The translations under genes and the position numbers were made by a program. Under the pieces are notes generated by a model that had not been told where the DNA came from, did no database searches, and worked only from the letters and a program-made list of their open reading frames with translations. A stretch of 63,640 nt of DNA, filler included, from Intoshia linei (lineage: Eukaryota > Animalia > Orthonectida): assembly GCA_001642005.1 (NCBI GenBank). It is 5 parts of 5 records of this genome, joined end to end, with 100 filler letters (N's around TTAATTAATTAA, not from the genome) between each part and the next. Parts side by side here need not be neighbours in the genome. Positions count along the whole stretch, not along the records: positions 35,723 to 56,468 come from LWCA01000676.1; 4 more parts are not named here. The stretch is one strand, 5' to 3'. This document shows, piece after piece, positions 23,001 to 57,517 of the stretch (position 1 is the stretch's first letter; each line of letters starts with the position of its first letter).

Positions 23001-26000
23001 ATTAAAAAAACAACTCATACGTTCATCAGAATTTTCTGAAATGGAGAGTCAACTATACGCATGGGTTAACTTGAAAAGAAAGAATAGGCGACATGTAATT
23101 ACCATTGACATCCAAGCGAAATCCATTAGTATATCTACAATTTTATATGGAGATAATGGATTTAAAGCAAGTTATGGCTGGACCAATCGCTTTAAGGATA
23201 GGCACAGTATTCGTAACCTTAAAATAACTGGAGAAAAATTATGGGCCGATGAAAATGCTGCAAAAGTATGTTTCCATGTTTAATGACATTACTAGAAACC
23301 TCTGTGACGGTCACATATTCAACGCCGACGAATGTGGCTTGATTTTGGGAGGCAAGTCCTGACAGAAAACTTGTTAATAAATACGAAAAAACAGCACCCG
23401 ATGAAAAATTAAAAAAGGAAAGATATACGTTTTTCCCAGGGTGTAACATATTTGGAAATTTGAAATTAAGGCTGGTTGTGATAGGAAAGTCAATAGATAT
23501 GAATAATTCATGTATTTTTTAGATTGTTTGAAAATTAACAAAAAATAAAATTTGAATTCTCCAATCAAACATGCGACTGCACTGATGAAATTTTTCCAAA
23601 AAGAAGATATTCATCATAATGATGGGTATATTATCTCTAAATTAAGAAATTCTTTAATAAAATCAAAATATAAATTTAAATTTTAATACTTTTTAACAAA
23701 TATATGTATACAGATATGTGTAATACAAAATATTATACATTACAATTTAAAATGAAACATGTAAATAAAATATTATGTTCAATTTGAATCGTATAGAATA
23801 TATAATTAAAATTATTCAATAAAGGTGTCTATATCTTGGCACTTTATCTCGTTCTCGTCAAAATCATATCGACAAAAAAAATACACTATAATCGTTATAC
23901 TGAAAACTTCTAATTGGACACAAAAAAATGTAGCTGATGTAAACGGTGTATCTCAGTCAATAGTATCAAGGTTAAAAAAATCTTTGGAAGGATATCATCA
24001 TATTTCTAATTCAAAAAGGAATAATTGTGGGAGACAAAAATCCACTAATGAAAGAACCGATAGAATAATAGTGTAAACTACTCTGAAAAATACAAATTCA
24101 AGTTGCACTGAAATTGTTGGAAACCTCAAAATTATAAACATAGAAATATCAAGACTAACAATAAATCATCGTCTTTTGGCGGCCAGATATACATAACTAT
24201 AAATCATATACAAAAGTGACAAAGCCCCTTTTAACTAAAAGAATGATAAAAGCGAGGTTAGCATAGGCCAAACGTTATGAAAATTGGAGTGAAGAACAAT
24301 GAAACCAGGTTATTCATTAAAATTAAAAAATAATATTAAATATCAATCAATTAATTAATATTATCGAACCTAAATTATTATTTTTTAGGTGATATTTTCT
24401 GACGAATCAATGATTCGTGTCATGGATGATCGTTTCTATTAGTGTACGCAGAAGGTCACACGAGGTGTCGAGAGCAGATTGTATCAAAAAAAACTGTTAA
24501 ATTTCCTCAAAAAGTACTAAATCCCATACAAAATGACTAATGATTAAATTAACCAACAATTTTTGGATTTTAAAATTTTACAATTTTAGAATCTGCTTTT
24601 TGGAATATGGCGTTTATTAAAAATAAATTTAAAATTAAAATGTCTAAACAACATTTGGAGGTTATGTTACGATTAGGAACATCAAAAACTTTACCGAGAT
24701 TTCAATTATTAGCGACAAAAAAAGCCAATTACGCAAAGCACGAGTACGTGAGATGGATCCTCAAAGAGTTAACAGAGTAAATAATTAAATATGAGTACAA
24801 AAAATTTGAACAATCATAAAACTACAAAGAAATATAATAAATAGTTGAACCTGAAACGAACAGTTGAAATTATTAAAGTAAAACAGTGTTAAACGAAACA
24901 GTATATTCAGTCAATATTCCCCGTAATAATAAAATAGTAACTGTAAAATGTTTATCATCGAAACGAAATTTAAAACTCCTATATAATATTGATTAAAAAT
25001 AAAATATTCACAAATCTATTTTTTAAAAGTTACCTGTTCAGCAATATAATAAGTATGACTGTCGGTTTCAGGGTGATTCCAAAAGCATCTAAACGTTTCT
25101 CCAATGATAGGATTGAATGGTTTTTTGAGTGGTTTGGTTTTTTTGTATAAACAAGACAAGTACCATTTAAGAATATACTTGATTCTTTCAAATGGATCAT
25201 GTTGTAAACTTGCTTGATGTAAAATATTGCAATGATAATAATATTCACTTAGTTTATCAAGAAAAGATCGAGATTCAAAAAAATTGGCTGGCAGTGATAT
25301 TTTGGATAAATCGCTACCTGGCTTAAGCTGTTTCAACATGGACCAAATAACACTCGACTGAATTTCATCTTCCGGGTCTTCTTCATATTCTGTATCACAA
25401 TCAATATTGTCTACAATGTAATCGCTGTCATGAATAGAACACTCTGAAATATTAGTAGATTCAGCTATGGATGGTGTGGTAGTGGTAAGTTCTGTAGTAT
25501 CTGATACAGATTCAGTAACTTTACTAACATCGTCAAAATGTTTTTCATCTTCAACTAAATTACGAGGTATATGTTCGGCAGTGTATTCTGTAGATTCCTT
25601 GCTGATACTAGTGTTTGTTTCATTAAAATTTAATGTCAAAGTATCCTCAGGTAACAAACTAGAGTTGGAATCTCTTAAAATTTTGGAAGATAAATGGGAA
25701 GTGACAATTTTTGAGCAAATTTCTAAAGCTTCCAGCCAACAATTCCCTTCAAAATCATTTGGTGAACGGAAAATTAAATGATTGTACGGTAAAGGCTTGG
25801 TGAAAGCACCTATTGATTCTCCATTGGGTCCACGAGTAGCCCAAATAGAACTATTAATGGGACTATTCAGTTTAAAACAAAACCCGTCCTTTTTAGAAGG
25901 TCTTTCAATAACTTCACAAGTATTTAATAAAATAGTTCCGATCCATTTTCGATTCTAAATACAGATAATGGTTACACATTAACCTTTCACTATCTGTGTA

Positions 26001-27802: not shown

Positions 27803-30318
27803 CAGACCGTCCATATGTTTTGAGCAATTAGTAAAATCGTCGCAATCTGTATAAATTTTCAATTTTTTAAGTGGCTAACGCACTTAATAACAGAAATTCC
27901 ATTCCTTAAAAAATGGTTTTAGTTGCGACGATACATTAAATTTAATAAAAACTGATTTATTCATAAATAACAATGTTTACTTTTTCAAATATTTTGAGCA
28001 CTTTCATTACTTTCAAAAACGTATTTTTTGCAATATAGGTAATTAATATTATTCTTATTTGAAATTTCAACTAGATACGTCAAATAAATATTCAGAAGCG
28101 CGAATTAGTTGTCACATATTTTAATAGAGGGTATACTTAAGTAAAAATTGCTAGAGAGCTCTCCGTATCCAGACGCGCAGTTCAAGAAATAATTAAAAAG
28201 CACCAAAAAGATCTACCTCTAATTAATCGACCTAAAAAAGGTAGACTAAGAAAAATGTTAGTCAGGGAGGATCGTTTATTAGAAATTAAAGCAAAATCAA
28301 ACTTTTTATTGACTGCTAATGAGCTGGGAAAATCGATAGCATCGAGTTCAAAATTTAGTCCCGCTACTGTTAAACGTTCTCTAAGACGTATCGGTTTATT
28401 TGAACGCATTGCAGTGAAAAAGCCTTATCGGACAACCTTGCACAAGAGAAAAAGATTGAAGTGGTGCAAAAACCGTCGAGACTCGTCAGAGCATGATTGG
28501 AATTTTTTCGTTTATAGCGATTAAACCAAGATAAATCTAAAGTCTAGAACCAGGAGGTGTATAAGACGGCGAAAAAATACTAGATATAGATTGTCACATG
28601 TCTACGCCATTGTCAAATTCTCTCCAAGTATTATGGTCTGAGTGCGATTATACAGAACGGAAAGAGATTGCTTGTTCGATGCTTTAATCGCGTTAATTCG
28701 CATGAATATTATAATATTCTGAAACAGTATATGTGCGAAATGCATGAGACAAGATGGTGCTTAGTCTCATACATCAAGATTTACGAGTCAATGGATACAA
28801 AGTCAGCATCTAAATATGCTACCAAATTGGCCGCCACAGAGTCCAGATTTGAATATAATCGAAAATCTTTAGAGTGAATTGAAGAAAAGGGTGCGTCAAC
28901 AATCTCCTCAAAAGTTGTGGGTGTTGGAGTCACTATGGAGAATAACAAAGGAAGAATTCTATAAAATACCTAACGATTATATCCAAAAATCTTTATGAGT
29001 CTATTCCGAGAAGATTAGATGACGTATTTTCAGTAAATGGCGGAAATACCAAGTACTGACATTATTAAAAATTTTAAAATTTAATTTATTTAATTATGTC
29101 GTTTAATCATAAAATTAATCACGGGTGCTCAAAACATATGAACGACTAAAATTATTATAATAATAATTTATTAAATGCAAGAAGCTTATAGCTTATGTCA
29201 TCATTGTAGTTTATAATTATACATTAGTTTTTGAAGTGTTTGTTGAGTAATTTTTTGAAAATTGGTGCGTGGGACGCGGTGACAATTGAAGTGGGCAGCC
29301 TATTCCAGTAATTTACAATCCTATTGAAGAATTGATTTCGATTGATGCCTGTGTTGCACCTGTTTTTGAAAATTTTCCTGGTGTTGGATCTTGTTTTTGT
29401 TTGAATAGTTTTAATTTTGTTACGGTTGATAAATTTGTAAGTCAGGCGGAGATCCAGCATATCCCTACGGCTTTTAAGGCTTGGTAGAGGTGAATGTAAG
29501 GGTGATAGACGACGTAGGAAGAACCGTTGAGCTGATTCCAGTTTATTTATATTGATTATTGATGTAGGATTCCATAATTGGGTGGCATATTCCAGCTTAG
29601 GCAACACAAAAGTTGTATAAATTCTTTAAATACAGAGGATCTCGCAGTGAAAACGTTTTTGTGAGTCTATTTATTTCCCGTTTGACGTTCATTTTTATTT
29701 TATGTATGTGTTTATTGAATTTAGCATCATTGGTGAATATGACCCCTAGATCCCTGACACTTTCCTTGTTTTGTAGAATGGTTCCATTAATAGAAAGATG
29801 GGGTTGAAATGTGTTCTTATTATGAGATACATACATATAACAACATTTCTGTTCATTCAGGGGAAGTTTCCACGACACGCTCCAATTGTAAATTGAGGTG
29901 ATGTCTTCCTGCAAAAGTTGGTTATTTGTTTCGTTGTTGACAGGTAAGTATATTTTTAAATCGTCGGCATATTGTTTAAATTTTGAGTGTTTAATGTGTC
30001 GCGGTAAGTCATTGATAAACAGGTTAAATAGGATGCCTGACAGTATACCTCCTTGTGGAACTCCACTTAAAACAGAGGTTGTTAGTGATAAAGTGTTTTG
30101 TATAGACACACACTGTGACCTATCTATATATATTATATATTACAATTTAATATTATCATCATTCTTATATCTAATAATTATCTAACAGCCTTCAAATTTA
30201 ATTACTAATTTCCGATCATATTTACATTCCTTCAAATATAAAATAAATTACACAAAAACACTTATTAATAAAATAATTAACGATTTTATAAGGTGCTCAA
30301 AACATATGGACGGGTCTG
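27803..30318 (+). mobile_element. Tc1 element (IR-DR type) with decayed transposase at approx. 28090-29058
   Basis: Outer TIRs CAGACCGTCCATATGTTTTGAGCA and TGCTCAAAACATATGGACGGGTCTG|TA, with inner repeats near 27985 and 29125. Motifs GRLRK, AVKKP, VYSD, WPPQSPDLNIIEN and NGGNTKY*. Confidence 0.92.
29150..30122 (-). mobile_element. 5'-truncated non-LTR retrotransposon (CR1/L2/Jockey-group RT 3' part) nested in the Tc1 right end
   Basis: SGVPQGGILSGILFNLFINDL, YADDLKIY, VRDLGV, PKLEYATQLWNP, FFNRIVNYWNRLP, and an AT-rich tail near 29150-29175. Confidence 0.92.
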
Positions 30319-31353: not shown

Positions 31354-33914
31354 TCATTCTCTTAAAATTTGATTGTCTCTGGCAAGCTGCCATAAAGTAC
31401 AGAACGGACAACAGTGAGCATTGCACCAATCACCGCAAATTGAGCCCTAAAACAAAATATAAACACTATATACTTATATATATAATATACTAGCTTGGCA
31501 GTTTTGTACTACGTACACTAAAAATTCACTCTCGAAAAACTTTATTAGAAATTGGTGTTTTCAAAACTATACACCTATTACTTTCTTAAATACAGAGTTA
31601 CAAACAGACAAACATACATTTTTAGCTAAAATATTTTGTATACAATATATACAAATACTATACATGTAGGTAAAGATTGTAATACATAATTCTATTATTA
31701 TTTTCAAACTCTACCCATTTCTCTAAAATAAAATGTAATTTTTTATATTTTTCTGTAAATTGATGGTAAAAATTGTATACGATCAAAATTGAAAAATATA
31801 ATAAATAATGGCGTGCATTTATCGTGTCAGTATTTTTCAGTATTGTAGATGGTTTGTCAGTAATTTAAATGCCAATTGTTAAGGTGTCAGTATAAATAAT
31901 TGATTGTCAGTATTTAAATTAGAAGGGCAGTAAAAAAAATTATTTTGTCAGTACAGGCACCTATAATACTGACAAACCATCTACAATACTTTAAAATAAT
32001 GACAAATCAATAAAAAAAATACTGACACAATTAATTAACATATTAATTGACATAATTTGTTCTCATAAAAAAATATTTTTTGGTGTGAACACCATAGAAT
32101 ATTTCTAATTTTTTTGTAATTTGGTTTGTAGGTATGTTATCTTAATATTCCAGTTTTAACTTAAGTCTGTAGTAAATGATATTATTATATAAAGTATTTC
32201 ATAATATTAACCTAATTAACCTCACAAGGATAATAATAAAGACAAGAAATATAAAAAAGATTAAAGGGATTGACATAATTACATTCAATTTTCAAAAACA
32301 CGATTTTTAATTTTTATACTGACACTCCAAAATCATAAAATTTACAATTCAATTTTTTTACTGACAAAATATTATTTTATAAAATGTGTTTATTTCTATA
32401 TACTTTTTTGTTGAGTTACTTACAATTTTCGATGAATACTGATCTAGTTAATATATTTACCGACAAAAAATGTAAATATGTACTGACAAGATAGCAATTA
32501 AAAACTGACAAATATGTAATTGAATACTGACAAATTAATTAATCCCCATAAATAATACCTTGATTCGATATTTCGTGCGATGTTTAAGTCTCAACATTGC
32601 TAGAAATGTCAAATAGTCAACCACACAGCATCCAGTACATGCAGATTCTTCTTCAACAGTTGATATGTATAATAAATAACAGTAAAAACAACACCAAACG
32701 CAAAAACCTAATTTTCATTACAATTTATTGATTGTATTTTATATTTTAAAGTATTATCTATAATTCACTAGTACTAAATAGTATCCAGTGATACTGTAGG
32801 CCCTAAGTTCGTGCTAAATTTATTTTATTGTTTGTGAATTGTTTTAACTCTAATAAGTACAAATTATAATTCAAATTACATTTTTTTAAATCGTCCAGAC
32901 ATCCGCAAAATGAAGCATACCAACTCCTTTCACCTTTCGACATATGATCCGAAATCTGATTTATGATTGTGACGGGACGTTCATCTGATTTCTAATTGTA
33001 CAATATACAATTAGTAAATTAGTAAATCTCAAAATTTATTTGTCCACTCTTAGTAGCATGTCTATTTTATAGGGTATATTTGTTAAGCAAGTGTCATATT
33101 TAACTTCATTAACATTTTTCTATGAATTGGGATAAAAAACTGGAATGACAAAATTGATTTTAAAATACTTGACGCAAGTGTTAACAAAATGGCACTAATT
33201 CACTTTAAATTAAAATATAATGTGAAATCACTTCTCCATGGTTAAAAAATTTAGGAACCACTCCTTTAAACTTTAAAGGGTTGATAATAGTAAATAGTAG
33301 CATTTTTAAGTAATATTTTATTAAATTTATTTTATTGGTGGAATCAAAAAATGTCACCTTCAGCAGAGCTAGCTGCTGATTATACAAAGTACATAACAGT
33401 CAAGCTTTTCAAATTAAATTTTCACATTACTTTGGAATAAGCTAACAAATTTTCACTTATGGCATTTGTTAACGGCGGTTGAAGAAGCGGCAATCCATTA
33501 TGAGAAATTTGATATGTTTTTGGATAATTTTCCCTAATTGGGTTCATTGATGCTGGAATTGTTACAATATCATAACTTTTTCGAGGTACATTTTCATTGG
33601 TATCATTTACCTGAAATTTAATATTATCAAAACTGATTCAATACAATTACACTACAATATGTTAATTTATAAAGTTTATGCAAAGTCTCGTCAAAAATTA
33701 AAAAAAATTGAACAGAATCGTATTTAAAAAGTACAAACCAATAAAAATTATAACTGCATCTAAATAACCTTATACGCCGGTGGATTTCCTGCAATTCCCT
33801 TACAATTTAATAATTCAGGTTGTTTTGTAACAATATTTTTGTTCTTAGATTTTTTCTTTTTATCCTAAATATTTTGAGTTTAACATTGTAAATTATAACC
33901 TTATAATATTCCAT
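31354..33914 (-). CDS. PLAC8 / cornifelin-family cysteine-rich protein (about 8 exons)
   Basis: Spliced: MEYYK|DKKK...|...RSWYASFCGCLDDLKK|CFCVWCCFYCY...LRLKHRTKYRIK|GSICGDWCNAHCCPFCTLWQLARD...*. This is the canonical PLAC8 motif layout and is not visible in the ORF track. Confidence 0.88.
31820..32540. repeat. Foldback-like element built from TGTCAGTA/TACTGACA octamer repeats in a PLAC8 intron
   Basis: A cluster of TGTCAGTA at 31825-31955 is followed by TACTGACA copies at 31965-32535. Inverted block AGTATTGTAGATGGTTTGTCAGTA / TACTGACAAACCATCTACAATACT. Confidence 0.7.
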
Positions 33915-34299: not shown

Positions 34300-35622
34300 T
34301 GTAGTGTTTATAAATTTAATCACAAGTTTAAAATAATCTTGAGTGTATGTTCTAGTGCGATAACGATAATAGAGTATTAAATAAAAATATGTTGTTATTG
34401 CACTACACCTCCCCATTTAAGTCGACGATGTAGTCTTGAAATTTTGAGACTCGAGACTTGTATCTAGGTTGTTCTTTAGAAATTTTTGGTTCATTAGATA
34501 TAAAATTTTCAGCATGATAGGATACTGATTTTTGAACTTTTTTATCGTAATTGTTTTCATTCTCAATAAATAATTGTTTTCTATACGCCAGAGTGTCTTT
34601 CCAATAACTTTTCGAACAGTAATTTGGAATGGATGAGCTTCTTTGTAACCCGAATAAAACCTCTAATGGCGAGATTCTCTATTTTTCGTGAGGTAATAGA
34701 CGAACGGATAAGATATATTGTTTAAATATTCGTCCCAATTTGACCAATCATTCTTGCAATATATGTTCAACTTTTCTCGAAAATATCAATTAAATCGTTC
34801 TACCGCCCCATTTTGTTGATGTCGATATTTTATTTCAAATCGCTTACATAATTCTTTAAATAAATTAGATTCGAATTGTTTACCAAGATCCGTATGAATT
34901 TCTAACGGAGGTCCGTATCTAGTTATAATGTGTGAATATACAACATCAACTATAATATCTGCAGAAATATTAAAAACAGGACAACTTTCAACCCATTCAC
35001 AATATTTACTACATATTTAAAACCATTATTCGATTCAGTGAAAAAACCACATATATCAAAGCCATAAGTCATATGCCAAAGAAAATAAAATTTATTTGTT
35101 TTAACAGGTTTTAATTCTTTATAAAAATTATGATTACGAGACTTGTTAATGTTACACATATGTTACAATTTTGTATGTAGCTAACAATTGTGCGTGTTTG
35201 TTGTGGCCAAAAATAGAGTTGATTAAGTATTCGTCTGGTTTTTGAAATTCCAGAATGACAATAACTGTAATTTGTGTGATAATAATCCAGAATTTTTGGA
35301 ATTAATTTTGGTGGAACTACTGGAACCAAAATATCACCTTTTTTAAAATATAGTATGGCATCCTTTATTATTAAATTCTTTTTAAAACGATAATATATAT
35401 TATCTTTCGTGATTTCATTAATACTACATAAAGCTTTCTGACAGTCATTATTATTGGATTGATATGTCTGTACATCAAATGAAACTGGTACAAATTTGAT
35501 AAAATTAACGGAATAAAACTGGGGACGTGACAGTATATCTGTAGTATAATTAAATTTTCCTTCTCTACATATTATTTCAAAATTGTAATTTTCAAGTTGT
35601 TGAATCCATTTGAATTGCCTTT
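34300..35622 (-). mobile_element. Ty3/gypsy 3' end: RNase H end, integrase, PPT (34408-34418) and 3' LTR (34300-34407)
   Basis: WIQQLENYNF...DILSRP; H...HSGISKT...YFWP...CNIC; GFDICG; YGPPLEIHTDLGKQFES; QQNGAVERFN. The minus strand reads AAATGGGGAGG|TGTAGTG...CACTACA. Confidence 0.9.
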
Positions 35623-35722
35623 NNNNNNNNNNNNNNNNNNNNNNNNNNNNNNNNNNNNNNNNNNNNTTAATTAATTAANNNNNNNNNNNNNNNNNNNNNN
35701 NNNNNNNNNNNNNNNNNNNNNN

Positions 35723-37149: not shown

Positions 37150-40100
37150 ACTTGTATTTTTATTTTATGTATATTTTATACTAATCTCCAAGTAGATTAA
37201 TTTAACATTTTCACTAATGTTGACAAACGATAAAAATCATTGAATCAATTGACATTACCCGTCAAATAATATAATTTCAAAAAACTTGTCAAAATTTAAT
37301 TACAAACTTTACATAAAATCAACACCGATTAGCATACACGGAATAACGATAAATTTGAAACAATTTATAACATGCAGGTTTAACATTTAGTTTATTCATA
37401 TAAGTGTTCTAAATTTAAATAATATATCAGTTTATTATTATGGCTTGAAGTTAAACAAGAAAACATTTTAAGGGTGACACAATTGAAAATCACTGTGATT
37501 GTCATTTGTAATGTACATCAGGCATTCTCAACCCTTTTTCGCTGTGGACCCCAAAAAATTATATACATTACATCATTTGTTTATATAAAATTTGAATGTG
37601 TTACCGTTTATTTAAAAACCCAATTTCTAATAGTTTTTCAAGAGTGATGCTGCATCGCAAATTACATTTTCCGAAATTAAGTGCTTCAGGGTCAAAAACA
37701 CAATTTTATTATTGTTAAAATAAAATCAGCTTAAAATTAAAAAAAACACATTGTAAAACGCATTTGAAAGTCATTAACATTGAAACTTACATCTTCATAG
37801 TCAAAACCCAAATTACCCTTTTTTTTTTAAAGTAAAAAATACGTAATTTAGTTTTAATGGAAAATAAATATTAACATATTATTATTAGTAAATTAGATGG
37901 CCTTAATTAGTAATAATTACTATCATTGCGGAAATATCATTTGTCTCTTTATTTTATTTTTATAAATAATATTTTTCATGGATTCCTACAAAAAACTGCT
38001 GTGGACCCCGTTGAGAATGGTTGATGTACATTGTACATGACCCAAAACGTACCCTCACCAGGTTTACAGATAAATAAATAAAAAAAATAACAGATTTATC
38101 TATCATATAAGCTTTACTGTACTGCCCATCAATAAGGTACATAATGGAAAGATTGAGCAGCATGTAAGATTTTGCTAAATTGACAGTATTTGGCATCCAA
38201 GGTTTAGTGTTGACTAAAATAAATAATAAACATTAATATATACTTCTAGTGGGCGAACTTCAATAATTACGAAAAAACTGAAAAAGAGTAACTTACTCAT
38301 TATAAAAGCAAACGATAAAATCATTTAGAAACAATGCACAATATTTACTTAAAACAAAGTAATAATGGCAATCGGAGATGATTACATTTTTAAATCAAAA
38401 TTAGATTAAACACAATGAACACTGAGTCGCTTTACTTTCATTCCATCATCTAAACACGGAACAAATTGAATCGATGGATATTGACATCACAACAACCCCA
38501 AAAAGCAATTTCATAACTATTCATACACATTCCAAAAAAAATGTCTAAACATTTTGACTGCAACCCGTAAATGGCCATAGTTTATTACCTAAATATACCT
38601 TAGAAGCAAAATTTTTGAATTCTAAATTGGCGGAAACATTCACATTTTAAAAAATATTTTATAAGAAAATAGGGTTGAATGAAATCGAATGAATGCATTA
38701 ATTCAATTCAATCAGATTTAGGAGATTAACTAACTAAGATAGGTATACCTCAATTTTATGTGATGAGGAAAGATTAATTGTTTATCGTGGATATGAGTGG
38801 CTTACAACTTGCAATTGGATTCTATAAGGGATGATGTGTTGTTCTTTTGTATATTTCGATCGTTTTCTGGTAATATTCCTGCTAGTGTCAATTTCAACGT
38901 GTTCACCAATTCAACGTTGGAAAAGAAGGTAATCATCGATTATTGGCATTGGAATTCCCAAAGACTATCATCGTGTTCGAGCAAGTTATTACCCGTGCGT
39001 TTGGTGGTCTCAGAGTGATACGTTAACATTGCCAGAGGGTAAATTCACTATAAAAAACCTAATGATAGCCTAAGTCGGTTGGCATGCCACATTCTAATCC
39101 AATTCTATCCATTCAATAATTTTATAAAATAACAATGTAAGTCGGAAATAATATTATTAGATTTCTAAGTTATTTCATATAATAGCCATGTCATTTGTAT
39201 ATTGAATCAGGTATTATATTATTATCCTGTTTATCACTTAGAATTAATTTGTTGTTTCTAAATGGTATAAAATTGTGATCCTGATTTGATACTTTGAAGT
39301 AATAAAACCATAACTGATTATATAACTTATTTTATTATTTAACAAATGGGGTGGAAAGTATTTTATAGAGTTCCGCTCGAACTAATCTGGATTTTTACAG
39401 AACAAGTCAAATGGTACTTCATGTGGATTCGGAAAACCTCAGCATTAAGTCTGAGAGTTGATCGGTTCTCATACCCTATAACATGAATCAAGATATATAA
39501 AATGATTTCCATTTGAGTGTATGACGTTCACAACACTTGTGTACACAGCGTTCGGAATGTCACTGACGCACTGTTTAGAACAGTGTTTCCCAACCTTTTA
39601 TCTTTTAGTGCCCCTTATAAAATTTTCAAATGATAGCGCCCTATTAAACGGTTTATTTATACAATCGATAAATTAAATCGCCTAACCTTTTCCATCATAA
39701 TAATTTAAATATTGTGATATGTGAAGTAAATTAGAATTAAAATAAACGCAAATTAGACAATAAAAAAAATTGAGGCACGTCACTATAACATATACCAAAT
39801 TAAAAATTTTAAATGGGATTCAAAGTAAAAAATTATGATAAATTAGCCACAAACTGCAAAAATATTTTGAAGTTTAATCAGCTATAATTCCCTAGTAAAC
39901 ATTTTCTGGAACAAGTCATAGAGGTGAAAAATTTACAAATGTTTTAATTGGTATATTATAATTAATATATAATTTTTAATTATGTCTAACCAAGGATCAT
40001 CAATATCACACCTAGTCTGCTGTGAAAAAATTGAGAAGTCACCGGACAATGATTACATCAAACAAAAAATTGCATCTATTATGTAACTTCAAATAAAACT

Positions 40101-43100
40101 TTAACAATATTGTATTGCTATAATATCAAGTTATTAATAGCAGTGCTATTAACGGATGCTGCTGCATACATGTTGTTAGGAATAACCAAATTAAAAAGTG
40201 AAGCTATAATACTACCAAACGGAGAGGCTGGTATTTATAAATTTATTTCACCTAACATGTGTCATACATTTATACCATAACATGGGGTCAAAGTAAGCAC
40301 GCATTACAGAGTTGTTAATAAACTGATTACAACGCTAAACGATGATTTAGCTAAAAGTGACTATAGACGAAAAAAATTTATCAACATTCCTGTACCTCCT
40401 GTTTTCCAAAACCAGATTTGGTGTGTGGTTAAAATAAGTCGAATATTATGTAAAACATATTTTAATTGTTAAAGGCATAGTCACTAATATTTTGGGTGAT
40501 TAGAGTCTCATCAATGAAGTAGCAAATATTGAATTTTCAAATACTAGCAGTTATAACGATTATGTAGATTTTGATTATAATTGTGATAGAAAAAAAGTTA
40601 TTAGCAGGGGAACAATTATAATTATTAATTAATAAAAACAAGCGTTTAAATTAAAATATACACTTAAAGAAATATTGATTATTGATACAAGAATAGATAA
40701 GACGAACAACCATTGAACCAAGACCAATTACCATAATAATATAATTGATACAATTGGAAGTAACTTTAGTAAAATGACCAAAAAAGCCTACACTATTAAA
40801 AAAAATGATAAAACTAGTGATGGAAAGATTCAAGCAGATAAATCGGCTAAAGGTCCAAATAGACCAAATGTAAGTGATATACATTTTGACAAAGACAAAT
40901 GGCAAATGTACAGCAAAAAGAACGTCCACAATGTTCAATCACCACATTCAGTACACAGGGATTTGATTAGGTACTTAGATCTTAGCAAGGAGCAAAAAGG
41001 ACAAAAGTTATATGATTCCGTAATAGGAAGCAACTCTGAGATAGATAGATTGCCCGCAGCTCAACAAGCGAGAACGGACTCAGGGGATAGATATTATGCT
41101 CAGGCTGCAATGATGAAGAAATACACAAAGCAGAAAAAGAGACTCGATAAGAAAAATTTTTGATTTATCTAATATCTATCTTATCTTTATATCTATCACT
41201 TGTGCAATTTTTCAAATTTAAATAATTGATATGACAAAATAAGATAAACAATTACAAGATGTGGCTTATTTAACACATACCATGGAAAAACTTATGCAGT
41301 TGCAGTCTTCACAATCGAAAACCCAGGTACTTATTCAGCACTGCCTCTGTATCTATTGTCTTTTCTCGATTATAAAAAATCTGCTTATATTCGACAGTAG
41401 AAGAAAAAATGATTATAATCAAAAACAAGCAGACTTTTAAGCAGACTTTGAAAAATATAAAAAATGCGTTAAAAGAATTTAGACAGCAAAAATGACATAT
41501 GTGTAAATTATATATTCGGAAATTGCAACTCAATATGCAATAAGGAGCATATCGACCCTATATGCAACAAGTGTGGTAGGAAGGGTCACAATAAAACTTT
41601 TGTAATTCAGAAATCAATACTAAACAGTATTCGTTATTTTATATTCCTGCCAAAATAGAGGGTAAAGAGGTTTCATGTTTAGTAGATACGGGGTCAGTAG
41701 CATCGTTTTTACCAAATACTTTCACACCTAATAAAAAATCAACATCTTTATATTTCTCAGTCACGGGAGCAAAGTTATCTATCACCGGTGAATGTAGATC
41801 TAAAATAGAGATAAAGTCACTAAAAGAATCATTTATACACACATGTGTAGTATCTAATGATGTAATGTACCCTATATTAGGATTAGAGTTCTTACAGAAT
41901 AATTCAATCGACATAACTCAAAATCCTATACGATTAAAAATCAATAACTTGAATTTTATTTTTTTTGTTAGGCGATTCGAATTTAAATCAGTCGATCTGT
42001 GCGACCCAAATATTAATGGTACTACAAATCTAGAGGCAATGGCATCATTAAACGATAATTTAAAGAATATAATATACAAACATAAGCATATTTTTACGAA
42101 CAAACCAGGAAAGTCAAAAAATTACACTCACGGCATATCAAAGATAATGAAAAGCCTATAGTAGGTCATTCTTATTCACCACCTATCCACCAAAGACAAA
42201 TAGTATCGGATCAAATAAATGAAATGCTCGACAATGGAATTATCGAACTTGCTAAAAGTCAATACGGATCATCTTGTTTAATTGTAAAAAAGAAAAACGG
42301 TTCTAATCGATTCTGCGTGGATTATCGATTATCTTGAATTTGCCATACCTTCACTTTTGAATGGTGTGCCTATACTTACTGCTCCCCAAATCGCAGTAGG
42401 ACAAATTGATGATAGTATGCAAGGACGCATTTCTGATCCAGGAACAAATAAATATGGACTAGCTTCAGCACCACTTTCACTATACCATTTAATTAAAAGA
42501 TGGTCAGGAATTACATATAATGAAGGACCTTATTTTTCCTATAGACCAGCTAGAACCGTAATCTCAACCTATAGTTTAAAAGCACCTTTGTGGTTTTATC
42601 TTGAATCAATATTTAAATACATACATGGAGGTTTTGAAGTATTAATTAGTATTGAACCAATAATGTTTGAAGTACAAATAGCCAATAATCCAGAAATTAC
42701 TACAGCAGTTTCTATAACGGAAGAATACATTACTTTATGCGGAGGCATATTACAAATAAAAAACAACAAACCTTTAGGACATATACCTTATCGATGTGAA
42801 ATACCTTACAGTTTTCATGAATATCCCATTTTTGGATTCCATGGCGATGAAACTTATCAAAGGACTACTTATTCACAATCGGTAGCACAAATACTCATAT
42901 TCATAAAATTTATTAAACATGAAATCTATTAAAAAACTAAAATCAACACATTCTGCCAATAATTAAAATGAACTGGAATCGCAACCGAATTTAGTTTTAA
43001 GTCAAGGTTTATACTGATCAACTAAAAAACTGTTGTAGATAAAAAAAAACGAATACATCATATATAATAAATAAATTTCTTCATACTAACGTAGACTTTT

Positions 43101-46100
43101 TCAACGAGATGTATTTCAATCATAAAAGAAATGTATTATTCAAATTTAACACAAATAAGTAATTATAAAAATGTAGATAAATTTTGTACAATATGCGGCG
43201 TATACATAAAAAAAGACATAAATTATCTCATGAAAACCAATCAGCAAAAGCAGGAAAAATAAGTTAACATTGGTTTAAACTTTAGCGCAATTTTAAACAT
43301 GCCAACACACGCAGTCATCACTTTAACATAAAAAAAAATGATTGTAAATATTAAAAGTAATTGAATGTAGAATTTGAAATAATTACCTTTAATAAGTCTT
43401 TTTTGGTTTGGATTAAAAACGGAGACATTATCAACTTTATCAATGTTTAGAAAAGTGGCAGCAATTGAAATTTTATCAATATGCATATAAGCTTCAGCCA
43501 TATACATTCTAACAACATACCTAAACATTATATAAAAAGTAAAAAAATTTAAACTTTTGAGCGGGTGAAGATTCATCAGAATGAAGAATCTTTTCCCCAT
43601 AATAGAGACAATTGTAGTAATCACCAAGATGCAATAAAATATAAATTTTCATTGAATATACGGCCATTCTAAAATACATTTATAAGTTAATTAAGTTTTT
43701 CTTTATCATTCATTTTTTATATTTTAAAACTTAAATATATAGTGGAATCTCGATTATACATAAAGCAAATTGCACAATATCTTTGTGCTATTTTTGTTAT
43801 AACTAAAACAGATTTAAATTACAACTAATAAATAAAGGTAATTTGGCGCCACATTTGAAAACTAACGATAATGAAAATTAAAAGCAATTTAATAAATTTG
43901 TTTGATAAAATCAAAATAATTGATGAGGTGGAATTAGGGAAAACCTATGGTTAAGTGGCTGCAAAATTTCATAAGGCTAGATCAACTATTGTGTCTATAT
44001 TCAAAAATAAGAAAAATATTATGAAATTGAACCATGATAACACAAAAATTTTAAAAAAAAGAAAATCTTTGAATTTGGGTCTAATGATAACATGGATAAA
44101 GCAGTTCTTCGATTTTTTCTGCAAAAAAGAGTAGAAAAATTACCTGTTTATGCGTATGTTACAGGAGTATGAGAAAAATTATATTGAAGAAAATGATCCA
44201 AACAGTACCATAAAATGTAGTTATGGCTGGCTACAAAGATTTCAAAAAAAGATTTTCAATATCCCTCAGAATATTATCAGGTGAACAATTGTCGGCTGAA
44301 ACTTCTAAAGTGGATCAATTTAAAATTCTTTTTAAGGATATTATAAAAAAAAAGAATTAAAATTATGTCAAATTTACAATGCTGACAAAAGTGCCAGCTT
44401 CTGGAGGAAAACTTGCAAAAATTCATTGGTGCATGCATCCGAAAAAATTGTCAAATTGCAAATTTTCAATAATAAAAGGCATTGAGCCAAAAGCATTATT
44501 GTTATTAGACAATGCACCGGCCCATAATCAATCGGAGCATTTAATTTCCGACGACGGTCTTATATCAGTTTTATTTCTGCCACCCAATTGTACCTCAATT
44601 CTTCAACCCATGGACCAACACGTTATAAATTCGATTAAACTCAAATACTCTAATAAATTAATGAAACGTATTATGGGAGAACGATAAAATAGAAGAAAAT
44701 TTAAAAAAAATAAATATATTGGACGTTGTAACAATGCTTCAAGATTCTTGGGAATGTGTGACTGAAAACGAAATAAAAAAATCGTGGAAATTGGTCAAGA
44801 AAATAACATTGATTATGAAATTGTAACCTCATCTAGCGTTGATAGCGATTTGTCTGAAAATTTACCTATAGACATTGTCAATATTATGCATGATTTTATA
44901 ACTGGAAACGATACATCTGATTCCATTGATGAATATAATACTGAACCTGATACAGAATTGATACATATTCCTTATTTTAATGATACAGAAGATTTTGATC
45001 TGGCAATAGAAAAAGTGGAATCCTTGATTCAGTCATCCAATAAACTTGATATGGATTGTAAATTAAAATGTTTAATAGATAATAAAAAATTGTTACTTGA
45101 AAAAAAACAAAATTATATACAAAAATTGTAGTTTAAATGTAAATATGAATAAATTATCTTTTTTATTGTTATTGTATAAATTATTATTCCGTTATCGATT
45201 ACTGTATATCAATGATTCTTCAATTATTAACTCTCAAAAATTAATTCTCATTAATTATCAACTACTCTTTTAAAAATAATCTATCAATAAAATAAAAATT
45301 GTTGTTCGCGATGGTCCTAAATTATTGTATATTGATAAATCTGGCCCTTCTGAAAAAAAGTTGAGAACCCTGCTGCATACATACAAATAGATGTTGTTTG
45401 TACGTAGCACAACACACTCTGATCAGGGTTTTTTAATATTTATACTCAATTAAGTTTTAAAATAAAATTTCATCATTATTTAGTATATTATAATCTATTA
45501 AAAATACTAATTCTTATTTCAACAGAATTATCTAAACTTAAAATTTAATATGAAGTTTTGATAATTGACTGTATGTAAGATCGAGATTCCACTGTACAGA
45601 GAAAGGTATTTAAATTAAAAATTCATTAAATTTTGTTAAAATGCAATGTAATATAAATATGGGAATAATCGCTGTTATTAAACTTGCAATTTATTCAGGG
45701 TCCAAAATATATTGTCATTAGAAACAGGGTAAACTCATAATACAATATATTCTATTTTAATAGTTGAATACATTGTTTTAATTGTTATTATATTATGAAT
45801 TACATGAATGCTTCGGTTTCAGCAGTAAACATGGGTTTAGCTGGTCGACATGGAATGAATCTAAAACATTTTAAATTAAATAAAAGATATCATTATTCAT
45901 AAGAAAAATATAATTGATTAATGATAAATTTTAATAAAAAATAATGTAACAATTAATTTAATAATAATTTAATTAAAATCAAAGTAAATGCTAGTATATT
46001 TATATCGTTAACTTCAGTGCATATAAACACAGTGGATTCAACTGAGTTAAACCTCAATGAAAAACATCAGGTGATAACGAAGTTTCTTTTTCTGGAAAAA

Positions 46101-49100
46101 CGATATTGATTTCATTTTTATACAAACAAACTTGTTCTCAATAGAGTTCTGCAACACGGTTCAAACCTATTGTTCAATAACTATTGACCACTATTTAACA
46201 AACAAAAAATTAGAAATTTTAACAAATATTTTTTTAAACTGAATTCAATATAATTGTATAAAAAAAGTAAAATTAACACAATTGTACTTGCAATAATTCA
46301 GTTATAATGCTTTTTAACGAAAATCTCGTAAACTTCTTTTACATAATACTGATAATTACAATTAATATTACCCATAAAGTTGCTTGGATCGAGGCCAGTG
46401 CTTATCCGTTATATTTAACGCATTTTCTATACATATGCGGGCAAGTTCATAACTTGGTTCAGGGTTTTCAGACAATATACCATCCAGCAACTTTCTAAAA
46501 GAAATATAAATTGAATAACAATTGAAGTCACTGAAGAGTTAATGATAGAAATGATAATCAATTTCATTATGATCGTGCACGAATTCGTTTAAATCGCCTT
46601 GGGGTTAAACCAAATTTTTCAGATATGATAGAAGAAATATGTAAATAAGAGGAAGTCAATGCAACTATGGAACGTATTATATTCTATAATTCGACACGAA
46701 ATTTAAATGAATTAATTGATGTATTTATTAACAGATTGTATGTGCAAGCTGAGAAATGTAAATTTGGTATTGAAACAGATAATCGTCTTAGAGATATAAT
46801 AATTCTTAAAGTAAACAATTATAAATTACAAACAATTATTAAAGAAAATTATTTGAAATTACGACGTAATCAATGAATGTAAAAATTTTGAAATTTTATA
46901 TAATCCTAATATAAATGCTATTAAATTTGATGATGAATCTAAACCTATAACGGATTTAAAAAAAATCTCCCATTGTCAAAAAGAGTGCTATGGATTACAT
47001 TACTATGTGGAAAACATTGTGTAAATAAAAAATATGATTGCCCCGCATGGTCGCATAAGTGTAGCACGTGTGGTAGTTTCTCTCATTTTGATCATATATG
47101 TCCATCTAAGGGTTCAGTTAATGCGGTCGATAGCTTACAGGATGTGAATTCATTATTCATTCAATTGGAAACAAATTTAAGTCTGTTAATAAATTTAATT
47201 CAATTAATCGTGTTGAGGTTAATTCTCTTAATTCAGAATATGAACTTATTATTAATCGATTTAGTAAAGTATTTAGCGATGTGTCAGGTAGAATTAGTAA
47301 TATGAACATAATATTCCATTAGTGAATGAAAATATAAGATATAAAAGTCCTATTTATCCCACACCATTAAATCTCAGGAAATTTGAAATAAATCTAATAA
47401 ATGATATGTTAAGTAATGGTATCATAGAACCTGTTGATCATTTGAATGACCCTTGCACATATTGGAAGTCTCCAAAATTGGTAACCAATTCAGGATGGTA
47501 TTTAATTTTAAAAAATTGAATGAACAAACAACAAAAAAATACTTATCCAGCACCTAGCTTCCAGTCCTGTTTAGATCATATAGCTGGTAATAAAATGTTC
47601 ACAACACTGGATCTTGTATCAGGGTTCCACCAAATTTTACTGAAACCGACTGATCGTAATAAAACAGTCTTCTCTTCAGGATATGGAAATAAATTATATC
47701 GCTTCAAACGCATGCCATTGGGATTATGTAATGAGCCGGCAACATGTCAGCGTGTTATGGAGAATATACATTCAGTGATTGTTTATATGGATGATATTAT
47801 TATAGCTTCTAAGAATCGTGCCGACCACATACAAGATGTGACACAGGTTTTAACCAGATTAGAAAAATTCGGTGCTACTGTCAAACCTTCAAAATGTAAT
47901 ATCGGACAAACTGAAATGTATATTCTGGGTCACCTAATTAATTGCAGTGGCATCTTCCAGACAGGAATTGGCGCTGTTTTACGACAGAATGATAAAGTCA
48001 TAGAATATGCTAGTACTTCCTTTAAAGGTGCCCAACTTTGTTATAGTACTGTTGTCAAAGAATTTTATGCCGTTTTATGGAGCGTCAAAAAATTCAAACA
48101 TTATTTATATGGTCGGAAATTCATTGTTATAACCGATCATAATCCACTTACGAAAGTCTACTAAACTAACTAATCGTCTTCACAGATGGGTTGAACGTTT
48201 GGAAATATTTGATTTTGATATAAAATATCGTCCCGGTAAATTAAATGTGACAGCTGATGTTCTATCTAGATTAACCTCAAATATCATAGTGAATTCTATA
48301 GTCACTAAAGAATCCTTTGACATTTATTAACATCAAAAATCTGATCCTCATATTACACCAATAAAGGAATGTAGTGATATGAAATTTCTCCAAAAATCGA
48401 ACCTTTATCACTATTATCGCAACCACATTACTATGAGCGACGATATCGTTTATTTCAAAAAAAATAACGCCTCCTTTCCGATTGTTCCACAGTCACTTAC
48501 TTCCTCAGTAATCAATTTTTTTCATAATAATCTGTCACCCAGGAGTTTCTAAGCTATACAAGATCATTCATCAGAAATATGTTTGGTCTAAACAGCACAA
48601 TGATATTCGACAATTTACGGCAAAATGTACCATGTGTAACGTAAATAAACAATAAAATATCAATATAAACCTTATTGTATACATTTATTATCGTAATCAG
48701 AAACATAATTTGTATTTTATTGATTAAATATCTTCATTTTCACTACAGGAGTATATCGATTTTTAAAAAGTCATCAATGTCATATTTTTTTCTTAATTGT
48801 CATAATTTAAAAAATTTTTTATTTTCTTTGTTTAAATGTCAAATGTACTAAATTATGTCACTTAAATCAACAATTTATGTTTCAAGTGCATTATTTTAAT
48901 ATTAGTTAACCAACTATAAATCAACCAAACCTGCAAGAACAACTTTTATATATAAGCATGAACTATGAAACATTTCCATCAATAATTAAACTCTCCAACT
49001 CGTTTAATTTTCAAAAAGAGGGATAACAGCAGTTTTTGACCCTTAAGATGTGAAATTGGGAGGTTGAAATATATCTTAATATACGTCCCGAAAAAAACTG

Positions 49101-52100
49101 TAATTGAAATGTGGTCTTTAAAAAATTCTAAGAGTGGTTTTTATTTAAATAAAGCTGAACACACACAAACAAAAATCGCGTCGCATTTTATATAAGTTAG
49201 GATAAATACGCATGCCATACAACATACTTTCTTTTCCACTTATGTAGTACATAGCGAGCAGGGATTCTTATAATTATGATCAACAGGACATGCATAGGAT
49301 CGACGTCTCTTTTCCAGATAAATCAAGACTTAGTTATGGAATTCGGTATTCAAATTTGAAGTGTTACTTATTGAAGGGTCCAAAAGTATAAAATCAAAAT
49401 TTGAGAGAATAAAAATGGCCTAATATTTTAAGTGTAATCAAGAAACTAAAACCTACATTTATATCAACATTACTGTTAAATTCTGACATTACATGACTAA
49501 ACATCTACATCATAAAAATTTTGACTGGAAAACCCGATATGAAATATATAACCTACTCTCAAATTACCATATACTTGACTCGAATGATCCACTTCTATCT
49601 ATCAGATGTCAAATATTTCATACAATATAATTTTATCAAAATTTTTGTACCACAAAAATATACAATCATTATTGAATTTACGATAAAATGAAAAATAGAA
49701 TCATCAAACTTGCCTAATACATCAATTATAAATTGTCTGAAGTGGTTTTTGTTACACTGGTAAATGTTTGAAAATTTAAATTGTAGTTACAAACAACTTG
49801 TCCTCTCTAAAGAAAGTTTGCACGACACGCATGAAATAAATTAAAACGAAAGAAAATTGAATACCATTACTTAATTATAAATGTAATTATAATCAGTATT
49901 GCATATCGAACACTAATACTAAATACTAAAACAAAAATGATTATAATCATCAAAATAAAGAGTTATATTTATATACACAAAAAGAAAGGTAGAGCAAAAA
50001 ATTCAAATCACATTGACTAACAATGGCGAGGTTAAAGAGAAAAATTTTTCATGTGTAATTATACATGTTAAAAACTTTCAAAATTGATGAAATTTTGAGA
50101 TGCCCCAATATTGTATAATTAATAAAATTTTGGAAAATACCAAAACATACAAATACTGCTAGTTTGACGGGTTTAGGTCGGTGATAACTGGAGAACGTCG
50201 GCCTGTATGTGACCAACAACAATAACATAATTGAAATAACTAATTTTATTTTAAAATAAAAAAGTCAGCAAAAACCACAAACAGGTTAAAAATAAATGAA
50301 ATAGTGTACTTATCTATGTGATAATCGGTTCCAGATTTACATTCAGCAGTATAAGATGGATATATTATATATTTTCGATGGATTCCTTGACCAACAATTT
50401 CCTTCAAACAATCTTTACCAGAGTAAGGTGATACATTGAATTCATTATTCATATTATCCGGTGTGACCTATACAACTTTTATTTCAAGCATATTTCTTGG
50501 TATTTCAAAACTTTAGTGCAAGGGACTGGAAATACTTGATAGTAATCAATTTTATATCAAATTCAATAAATTTTTTATACAAAATTGAAAATGGCGTATG
50601 CAATAGTAAAATACTCACAAACCCATTAAATTTTGAAAATACGGTACATTAATTAAATGTAAACTGTAAAATAATTCAATAACCCACAAATACATGTTAT
50701 TGTTTACATTATAATCATTAAACTGTACTGGTTACTCAAAAATATAACTTTTGAAGATTGAATGATCACTTTTCGAAGGGGTTTCAATTAATGATACATG
50801 ATTTTAAACAATTTAAAATATTTTGATTGATAAACTATTTAATATTGATTGATATTTAATATCTCGACAATACGGAAAAAATATTATTGTCAATTTATGA
50901 TCATATTACTTGGTATATTTCGAGCAAAAATAACATTTTATAAGTTTATAATAGATAAAACTAAATTTTTTAAAAATAGCTTTGAAATTAATTTTTTTAT
51001 AATCCTTAATTAGATTTCATCTTTATTATCAAAATTTTAGAAACTAAATTTTTTAAAGTCGTCACTTTTGAAGCCGACTATTGCATCAGTTTCATTATAA
51101 TTATACTAATTATAATTACTTATTATAATAAGCTCATCAATTTTTTGATCATTGTTGATTAAAAATATTTTTAATTTTTGAAATGTAAAAATGTATTAAC
51201 TTATTTGCAATAATAAATTACAATTTAAACATACATGTATGTATTTAACATTAAATTAATATTATTTTCAATAATTTAAATCAATTAATTCTAACTCCTG
51301 TGTAAATTCAATCCAACCAATTTTTTTTGAAAAAAATATTTCATACAATATAAATTTTTTAAAATCCAATTGTATAATGTTCTACCTCAAAAAAAGTAAA
51401 CTTGTCGACGACAACAAATTTTAATGTAAAAGATACACTGTACCTATAAAAATTAAACGTTACCTTATTTATTATCATGGTAATACATTCAGCTAACCTG
51501 AGCCATAATCTAGGATTATCAGAATAAGATCGTAAAGCCATCTTTAAATATTTGAACGATTCGACACAATAACCATTATGAAAAAGAGAAATTCCAGTAT
51601 TATAGTTAATACGATCTTCCAAATCAATGTGTTCATATTTTATTGAATCACGATAGTACTCTAATGAAAAATATTAAACATTTTTGGCAATTAAATATAT
51701 TTATCCATAAACCCACTTTTACCTGCCTTTTTCTACAATATCACAAACAAATCTGATGCTATATTTGTTTTAATTTTAAGATCAGAGCCAAACCTACCAA
51801 TCTCGAGATCACCCGTAAATCAAAAATAGGCCATTAAAAATATTAATCTAATAATAGTCTCTAGCCACCTATTCAAAGGTCTTGACTTTATATTTCAATT
51901 CTCAATTTAGAAAAATAAGCCGTTTTACAATATTACGTTATTTCGTCAAGCCCCGAATATGGTATCGGTACTATAACTTCGGATCTGTCTAGCTCATAGG
52001 TTCGTAAACTTTTTCCACTCCTTAATTCAATAAAGTTGTATGTATGTAAATTTAATAAACTTATTAGGACTATTATTATTTTAAAAAAAGGGTAATCTGT

Positions 52101-56064: not shown

Positions 56065-57517
56065 CCCTCACCTACTGAATTCCAAACATCCCCATCTACT
56101 TTCCACTTGTTGATCTGTTTTACCACTCGCCATTTCTCAGTTACTTTATAAATATCTTGACACAAGACGTTATATTTCTCTGGTTCTATGGTTAGATCAC
56201 CATTTTTCCAAGTGCTAATAGGAAGATATCCAACGTTAGACAATGTGATAGAGAACCAATGCTTATCACCGATTGGCATCAAAATCAATGGATGAATATT
56301 AAGTGGTGTTTATATCATTATGTACAGTTTAATTACATTAAAAATATACAATTTATTAATTCAATAAGGGTAAATATGAGAACATTTTATCTAATGTGCA
56401 AAAACGGAAATATTCCTTCATAAAGTAATATTTTATTGTTGACACTATGTAAACATTGGTAATAAAATNNNNNNNNNNNNNNNNNNNNNNNNNNNNNNNN
56501 NNNNNNNNNNNNTTAATTAATTAANNNNNNNNNNNNNNNNNNNNNNNNNNNNNNNNNNNNNNNNNNNNTTTGTTAATTGATATACTATTTTTTAATTTTA
56601 TAGTTTGTATACTAAAAAAATTTATATATTTAATTATAGACATTTTCACTACATAAAGTCGTTTTTTTATAACTAACGTCATGTTTTCAAAACGTAAGTC
56701 ACTTTTTTATAATTAACGTCACATTTTCAAATTGTTAAATAGTTTTTTCAAAAATAAAGTCAGACTTATTTATTGGTTACTGATGACGGGTTTCAGATTC
56801 AATTTGGTTAGCGGACTATATTTTTATTGCATTATGGTTATTATTTATACATCTAAAACGTTTTGGGCTATAAACCATAATTTAATAATATTAAAGGTTA
56901 TATTTCCACATCACCGAAAAAAATAAATAAAAATAATCAAGTTTAATGATATAATTACTAATTCAATTATTTCCATTACTATAGTTATACTACCAGATAT
57001 TTCTTATAAAGGTGACACGTGAAATTTTCAATAATTAATCGTGAATATTAGTCGTTTACAATGTTTAATGTATGTATTTGACTTTTATTAATAATATTAG
57101 TTTTTTAAATATTTTGAAACAAATACAATATTTACCACTAATTTTTTATCGATTCCCAACTTTAGCCCCAACAAACAAATCAAATATTATAGACTTGTAG
57201 TTATATATAGAAATTTTCTTATAGCTTTGTGATATATAATTAAAAAAATGTGGTGGTATTTAAATTTGGCGATATTGAAAATCATCACTGTATATTTTTA
57301 GTTTTTGATTACATTCTATATATAATATCAAAATAAATTAAATTATTCTATGCACTTTTATAATTCGGAACAAATGGTTGAGCAGTACTCAGTGAACACC
57401 GAATTAACTATTATTTTTTATACCTTCTAAAATATATGAATTGTAAATGATATTGTTATGGTCATAAACAAGTAGCCATATGTATAAAATCATATTAATG
57501 AATTTAAAAAGATATTA

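Follow-up and report, generated by a model that had tools for sequence, protein, structure and literature searches.

Organization of the locus

The analyzed window (63,640 nucleotides from the genome of the orthonectid Intoshia linei, assembly GCA_001642005.1) has a GC content of 26.8% and carries intron-bearing Rab, OSBP and CNOT10 genes as well as many transposon relics; no tRNA gene was found in it. At the locus described here, the 5′ half of a gypsy element (gag, protease and start of the RT) is directly joined to a 3′-terminal piece (about 0.6 kb) of a viral polyprotein gene, the two parts having the same orientation (Table 1). An N-free stretch of 20,746 nt (35723-56468) encloses the junction, far from any gap. 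This stretch also includes a CNOT10 exon, so that the viral sequence is contiguous with host chromosomal DNA in the assembly.

Table 1. Features of the gypsy-virus locus (positions in the window).
Feature	Position	Strand	Basis and remarks
Degenerate C-terminal part of gypsy gag, Cys/His zinc-knuckle-like motifs	41243..41600	+	Read by eye across several frames; 5′ boundary approximate
188-codon open frame for gypsy aspartic protease and linker	41595..42161	+	Pfam RVP, gag-asp_proteas
N-terminal part of gypsy RT, ending in VDYR	42140..42328	+	Ty3 matches; frame different from that of the protease
Junction GATTATC-GATTATC, perfect tandem	42320..42333	+	First copy gypsy, second copy spans the switch
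Likely last VP3 strand and linker, ending in AVGQ	42333..42404	+	Aligned to relatives
Likely VP1-like last capsid protein (most of it), unclassified picorna-like virus	42405..42908	+	tblastn; frame runs on to the stop at 42930-42932
Candidate remnant of the viral 3′ end, decayed, closing in A9	42909..43049	+	Uncertain
13-mer, candidate degenerate target-site duplication	43048..43060	+	Recurs with 2 mismatches at 40048-40060

Upstream of the junction, the Ty3/gypsy order of gag, protease and Ty3-type RT is present, gag being recognized by motif only: this part gave no significant Pfam match and was assigned from its motifs and its position just before the protease. The protease matches RVP (E 4.6e-7, 41595-42158) and gag-asp_proteas (E 3.9e-4) in Pfam. 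In the PDB, the stretch 42086-42328 matches the Ty3 RT chain 4ol8 (E 0.0017) and Ty3 Gag-Pol 7q5b (E 0.0069), with an alignment that stops exactly on VDYR. These RVP and Ty3 RT matches corroborate the gypsy identity that a preliminary description of this DNA had given to the sequence 5′ of the junction. On the gypsy side, over about 930 nt, inspection by eye identified at least three frame breaks (near 41495, 41600 and 42140). Each of them sits at a run of A or T, so that sequencing errors may account for some.

RNase H, integrase, paired LTRs and a polypurine tract were searched for at the locus and none was found, the fragment corresponding to the 5′ part of a gypsy element. Neither an LTR pair nor any other long direct repeat was found to flank the locus, and the RT-RNase H-integrase region does not resume on the right of the viral piece. 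The fragment retains neither LTRs nor integrase and can be predicted to have lost its mobility. A metagenome scan with the gypsy protease confirmed none of 596 candidate stretches, and thus yielded no intact member of the family. The possibility that another gypsy relic of the window (about 46500-48640) is the displaced 3′ half was also examined and dismissed, as this relic includes gag-like and RT N-terminal parts of its own and shows only 46% identity over 24 aa.

No stop interrupts the viral frame between 42288 and the one that closes it at 42930-42932, i.e. over 214 codons, or 201 when counted from 42327. The different, stop-free frame of about 200 codons that had been reported to open at the junction is thus present, as are all the motifs quoted in that report. 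None of 2000 shuffles of 41200-43200 contained a stop-free stretch of at least 192 codons. The GC3 of the viral part (0.17) is host-like, and its CpG ratio (0.51) is the lowest of 11 coding stretches compared, though close to that of the upstream ORF (0.53); this low CpG is a weak sign of RNA-virus origin.

CNOT10 lies on the minus strand, with one exon within 51362-51673 (E 6e-7) and a probable one near 43390-43530 (E 0.69, residues 547-583 of a 685-residue chain), about 450 nt from the viral piece. Two stretches within 42941-43387 are candidates for the 3′ end of this gene and gave no PDB match. The antisense orientation previously reported for the insert holds, but its location within a CNOT10 intron is less certain: since about 100 residues of CNOT10 could not be placed, the insert may lie in the last intron or just past the end of the gene.

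Identity of the viral part

A phmmer search with the ORF over 1.84 billion proteins returned five proteins at E ≤0.001, including the ORF itself as P0001, the called product of the window (171 aa from 42417; a cluster of one member on one contig, whose recorded length equals that of the N-free stretch), which is the sole near-identical protein in the collections. Three of the four other matches are complete polyproteins (2,436-2,625 aa) that carry RNA helicase, 3C protease and RdRp domains and in which the C-terminal end is the part matched (E 1.5e-40 to 6e-6, 30-44% identity): P0002, P0003 and P0005, the last one being Cryptolin calicivirus 1 (WOC29232.1). The fourth match, P0004 (E 2.5e-14), was judged spurious because it is an Arg/Ser-rich tandem-repeat protein devoid of viral domains, and was left out of all alignments. 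A fourth relative, P0006, was obtained from a further search.

By tblastn, P0002 covers 42333-42908 (44% identity, E 4e-40), and P0003 and P0005 match the viral ORF with 37% (E 7e-30) and 30% identity (E 1e-12), respectively. Over the C-terminal capsid region, identity to the ORF reaches 49% for P0006, 48% for P0002, 39% for P0003 and 31% for Cryptolin calicivirus 1, and the ORF retains 29 of the 32 columns that are invariant in four natural viruses. All four share with the window this homologous region and a G-Q/E motif. However, they are complete, exogenous-looking polyproteins, whereas the window holds the last 8% of the polyprotein of a distinct virus. The viral match ends 28-54 residues before the C-terminus of the polyproteins (28 in the closest relative).

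Queried by itself, the ORF gave no match in Pfam or in the ESM Atlas and, among PDB sequences, one antibody match (E 0.41) and nothing else. A word-index protein search near the length of the ORF retrieved only the ORF itself; extended to proteins of up to 2,000 aa, a length that the true relatives exceed, it confirmed none of 447 candidates. Scans of IMG/VR confirmed none of the candidate stretches obtained with the ORF (n = 33), P0002 (n = 27) or the alignment A3 (n = 46), and a metagenome scan with A3 confirmed none of 181. Within the window, no other viral stretch reaches E 1 by tblastn and there is no second copy. The matches to the polyproteins support the derivation of the ORF from the capsid gene of a picorna-like +ssRNA virus; accepting this origin, a called gene of public protein sets (P0001) is a viral capsid. 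The source virus is distinct, the collections searched containing none that is closely related to it. The preliminary description had announced the record of an unfamiliar virus, and the 48-49% identity of the two nearest relatives agrees with it.

Within the capsid of this unclassified picorna-like virus, the ORF likely corresponds to the end of VP3 followed by the greater part of VP1. This reading is based on (i) the match of the homologous stretch of P0002 to CRPV_capsid (E 0.0045; 17.1 bits, under the curated cut-off of 22), (ii) the 12 weak PDB matches of the P0002 part located just upstream, all to capsid chains and mostly named VP3, the best being 8b38_C (E 0.009), by its title a Chaetoceros RNA virus capsid, and (iii) the AVGQ site (42393-42404). 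The same G-Q/E motif occurs in P0002 at 920, 1150, 1662, 1979 and 2248; since it recurs there before the protease, before the RdRp and within the capsid region, AVGQ is likely a protease processing site. The VP3-end/VP1 assignment made previously therefore fits the alignments of the relatives and both sets of capsid matches. By contrast, the check proposed for it, a search of the ORF itself against the Pfam families CRPV_capsid and Rhv, gave no match. Among five members, CRPV_capsid was matched by one (below the cut-off) and Rhv by one (E 0.12), so that neither the ORF nor these members reached the curated cut-off of either family.

Structure prediction had been proposed as a test for a jelly-roll. 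The single-sequence AlphaFold model of the ORF has a pLDDT of 29. The model of P0002 (5-row alignment) is partly confident only upstream of the match, its VP1 part having a pLDDT <35. This upstream part is capsid-like: picorna-, dicistro- and calicivirus capsids make up all of the 50 PDB matches listed for the P0002 model, and its matches in BFVD are mostly picorna-like proteins.

Dicistroviruses have two separate cistrons, and iflaviruses carry their capsid proteins at the N-terminus of the polyprotein. The four relatives have a single ORF that begins with the non-structural proteins, the capsid region being C-terminal to the RdRp. By their layout, they are neither dicistroviruses nor iflaviruses and, by analogy, the source virus probably was not either. 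Of the earlier assignment to dicistro/ifla/marna-like Picornavirales, the picorna-like capsid is thus retained but the dicistro/ifla layout is not. The capsid region of the relatives includes several G-Q/E sites and one G-L/F-S-x-P site, which suggests that they have several capsid proteins; Caliciviridae have one major capsid protein. The RdRp of P0002 matches the PDB entries 8iib (E 4e-29), which we take to be a dicistrovirus polymerase, and 1khv (E 5e-12), presumably a calicivirus polymerase. The name "calicivirus" given to P0005 by its depositor is doubtful. One study places Cryptolin calicivirus 1 in a group with clam, gastropod and crab viruses (10.1101/2025.06.19.660416).

The junction and the route of capture

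The similarity to gypsy RT ends on GTG GAT TAT CGA (V-D-Y-R, 42317-42328), after which the RT frame has two further codons and then a stop at 42335-42337. The two GATTATC copies follow each other head to tail (42320-42326 and 42327-42333), exactly as the preliminary description had read them. They form the sole perfect 7-nt tandem pair within 41200-43000. As the window includes 35 perfect tandem pairs of period 7-12, the chance of finding one is about 0.8% per given 15-nt slot, the slot being here picked after the fact. The changeover from gypsy to viral similarity is confined to about 5 nt: the first two residues past the switch are unlike those of the relatives at the same columns, and viral similarity is clear from 42333. 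No classic target-site duplication was found at the junction (no repeat ≥8 nt).

A chimera produced during assembly or in an amplified library, in which RNA-virus sequence would have been joined to a repeat, has to be considered, since the junction is known from a single record, the only near-identical protein is the window's own and repeats are common misjoin sites. This is nevertheless very unlikely. The junction is remote from any gap, just one 0.6-kb viral piece is present, and the viral frame ends before the C-terminus of the relatives and grades into AT-rich sequence, like a decaying insert. Furthermore, a DNA library is not expected to contain an RNA virus that has no DNA stage. The locus is thus very probably a real EVE, whatever its route of formation.

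The open viral frame beside a broken gypsy pol, and the recording of a 171-aa product as a called gene, could also indicate that a multi-copy, non-autonomous gypsy lineage had acquired the capsid piece at an earlier date and carries it as a regular cargo ORF. We regard this as highly improbable, given that the ORF has no second copy in the window, that its cluster is limited to one member, that LTRs are lacking and that the ORF is devoid of the C-terminal motif of the relatives.

For our preferred reading, a genuine EVE made by gypsy RT switching templates between viral and gypsy RNA, we see about an even chance. Minus-strand synthesis runs 3′ to 5′ along RNA; the virus would therefore have been copied first and gypsy second, the RT copying the viral 3′ end and then moving onto the gypsy RNA at the VDYR codons. 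A slip of the RT during this switch would have produced the 7-nt duplication; the resulting chimeric cDNA would subsequently have reached the germ line and undergone decay. One more event, be it another template switch, a deletion or an insertion independent of integrase, would also be needed, because there are no LTRs and no pol after the virus and because a probable CNOT10 exon lies about 450 nt away. The preliminary description had presented the locus as a fossil of RT template switching. The virus-gypsy chimera stands, whereas the switching by gypsy RT is what we infer, no LTR or downstream pol being present. The tandem duplication, the absent LTRs and the lack of an intact copy of the gypsy family count against the gypsy RT route.

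Clean copy-choice at a microhomology leaves one copy of the shared bases and not a tandem pair, and templated duplication is typical of end-joining repair. Such repair could have patched viral cDNA into a break in a resident gypsy relic, the 7-nt duplication being a templated insertion and the gypsy 3′ half being lost in the same or in a later deletion. The duplication of flank sequence in tandem at the junction, the two residues past the switch that differ from the relatives and the density of transposon relics in the window, which makes chance adjacency not rare, all fit this scenario. So does the number of frame breaks, at least three in about 930 nt of gypsy vs none in 576 nt of virus, but this difference is not significant (P 0.07-0.16), and gypsy and viral parts of equal age are compatible with the data (P 0.16). 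In addition, the shared orientation together with the loss of everything 3′ of VDYR would be an extra coincidence, and gypsy sequence does not resume on the right. Overall, we consider repair capture to be rather unlikely.

Neutral simulation gives some indication of age. The probability that the viral frame stays open is 0.49-0.68 at 1% divergence, 0.05-0.17 at 5% and ≤0.04 at 10%, which implies, under this model, a neutral divergence since insertion of less than about 10%. The earlier claim of a relatively young insertion with an intact frame thus finds fair support from the simulation as regards youth, but the frame is not intact, its similarity ending around 42908, 28 residues short.

The downstream end of the piece bears on a third route, in which the RT of a LINE would have started from the viral poly(A), proceeded through the 3′ end of the virus and jumped to a gypsy mRNA, thereby generating an LTR-less chimeric retrocopy, perhaps with a further jump to a third RNA at 40061-41163. 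No significant viral similarity was found beyond 42908: the ORF stops short of the last conserved C-terminal motif of the relatives, to which a resemblance seen near 42946 in another frame is not significant. A run of nine A (43041-43049) is located 110 nt past the ORF. It could be a poly(A) remnant, although this is uncertain, since runs of at least nine are expected in about 5% of 300-nt slots and the stretch between the ORF and this run cannot be shown to be viral. The 13-mer at the end of the piece recurs just before the upstream ORF region. This repeat (11/13) is not significant either, as 4.2 such matches are expected by chance across the window and 11 of 49 background 12-mers match the upstream region equally or better. 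The A9 run and the degenerate repeat are thus only suggestive. Other points are in keeping with LINE activity: the viral piece is the 3′-terminal 8% of the polyprotein, no LTRs were found, the window carries a non-LTR-type RT (assigned by motif reading; 29600-30139, RVT_1 E 4e-16), and bipartite and tripartite LINE chimeras are known (PMC2104539). On balance, this route is unlikely. Copying by a LINE from the poly(A) nevertheless accounts for the A9 run and for the 3′-terminal location of the piece as well as copying by gypsy RT does.

A more specific form of it, which we hold to be quite improbable, is that the 3 kb of 40061-43049 would be one poly(A)-primed retrocopy of three templates (virus 3′ end, gypsy mRNA and third RNA), flanked by a decayed 13-nt target-site duplication. 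If true, a natural virus-LTR chimera would have arisen via LINE template jumps and not by the LTR element's own RT, and the locus would be the first genomic fossil of this picorna-like group, whose named relative is grouped with viruses of marine invertebrates.

Comparison with described chimeras and EVEs

Fossils that associate a virus and a retrotransposon are a known kind, but they are rarely reported for this virus order. Virus-LTR chimeric DNA has been demonstrated experimentally in infected flies, where the four cloned chimeras have the two parts in opposite orientation (PMC5857290). The EVEs of Aedes are reported to be enriched in gypsy elements of the same orientation (10.1101/127498; PMC5497376). 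These EVEs, fused to Ty3/gypsy or Bel/Pao, likewise place an RNA-virus piece beside a gypsy element in the same orientation, and template switching was proposed for them (10.1101/127498, PMC5497376). However, the text covered from these sources names Flaviviridae, Rhabdoviridae and Chuviridae, and there are zero occurrences of "Picorna" and "Dicistro" in PMC5497376. The Aedes EVEs are also described there in large piRNA clusters, whereas the element reported here is a lone piece beside a host gene; a putative role of the locus as a small-RNA template is possible.

The nearest described case comes from the nematode Bursaphelenchus xylophilus, in which a Bel/Pao element contains a nodavirus RdRp known as eBxnv-1 (PMC5177903). 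As here, it is a single-copy +ssRNA virus fragment with an open frame in a degenerate LTR retrotransposon of a non-arthropod (PMC5177903). It differs by the partners involved (nodavirus RdRp and Bel/Pao vs picorna-like capsid and gypsy), by the conservation of two LTRs, PBS and PPT, and by its confirmation by PCR and RNA-seq, whereas no LTRs were found at the present locus (PMC5177903). TgEVE3 and TtEVE3 from horseshoe crabs resemble it in being Picornavirales-derived and carried by an invertebrate genome, but they are dicistrovirus-like and derive from the non-structural polyprotein, and no base-level gypsy junction is described in the available text (PMC12282059). The LINE-made chimeric retrogenes of Magnaporthe and mammals also consist of RNA copies fused head to tail without LTRs; they have clear terminal direct repeats and derive from cellular RNAs, whereas here neither the repeat nor the A tail is significant and one partner is viral (PMC2104539).

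No EVE of this kind was found in the accessible text of PMC9963324 or PMC9241645. More generally, our search of the literature, which covered main texts of largely non-subscription papers, did not reveal any EVE derived from this group of viruses. In one survey, Picornavirales account for only eight of the 1,222 RdRp-like sequences obtained from eukaryotic DNA (PMC12548735). Few RNA viruses are as common in invertebrates as Picornavirales, yet their genomic fossils are rare. The locus would tie an otherwise host-less virus group to germ-line infection of this host. Furthermore, it keeps a base-level junction between virus and retrotransposon, which is lacking in most EVE surveys, so that the route of capture can be tested.

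The called gene over the viral piece and its viral relatives

The picorna-like virus capsid frame overlaps a called gene, recorded as such in NCBI, UniRef and nr, whose 171-aa product (P0001; 42417-42932, plus strand) starts at 42417. Although recorded as a gene, P0001 is a fragment of a viral capsid. The relatives of the viral piece include Cryptolin calicivirus 1 and, related to it, three apparently complete picorna-like polyproteins (P0002, P0003 and P0006). These three seem to form an unclassified group, with an RdRp followed by a capsid region toward the C-terminus, and their Pfam annotation does not include any capsid domain.

Open frames upstream of the gypsy piece

The upstream side of the degenerate gypsy piece joined to the capsid frame adjoins a series of long open frames separated by stops (see table). 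A Pfam search of these frames gave no match and, for the 63-codon frame, an Atlas (ESM Atlas) search returned leads that are all sub-threshold. The CpG ratio of the last frame is low (0.53), resembling that of the viral piece. This series could be a decayed gene, host exons with short introns, or another captured RNA. Further upstream, short open frames alternating with AT-rich stretches look like a host gene with multiple exons; seven pieces of this region were searched against Pfam and gave no match.

Other transposon pieces and host genes of the window

The DNA transposon carrying a DDE_1 domain stands between an exon and a probable exon of the host gene CNOT10, and the second gypsy relic, belonging to a family other than that of the gypsy piece, is likewise placed between these. 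The integrase-side part of this second relic and the third gypsy fragment share 30% identity. The two inverted-repeat pairs may be small non-autonomous DNA elements.

Transposon pieces, open frames and host genes located in the window
Feature	Position	Strand	Details
DDE_Tnp_1_7 transposase	175-1098
Rab-family GTPase gene	5200-5982		short introns
Tc5-type HTH	22969-23283
Oxysterol-binding protein exon	25016-25954
Tc3-type transposase	28141-28524
RT, probably LINE type	29224-30139
Inverted-repeat pair	31825-32004		49 nt, 86%
Third gypsy fragment	35111-35620	-	truncated by assembly gap
Inverted-repeat pair	37501-38041		32 nt, 84%
Short open frames	38400-39600	+	AT-rich stretches between
Long open frames	40053-41163	+	75, 63, 42 and 148 codons
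DNA transposon	43738-45596		DDE_1, E 9e-13; 34-nt terminal inverted repeats, 82%
Second gypsy relic	46500-48640	+	gag-like, RT, RNase H and integrase parts

Structure of the gaps

All four gaps (7484-7583, 35623-35722, 56469-56568 and 61095-61194) are built as N44, 12 nt and N44. The 12 nt found at 35667, within the second of them, read TTAATTAATTAA, which looks like an artificial linker from scaffolding.
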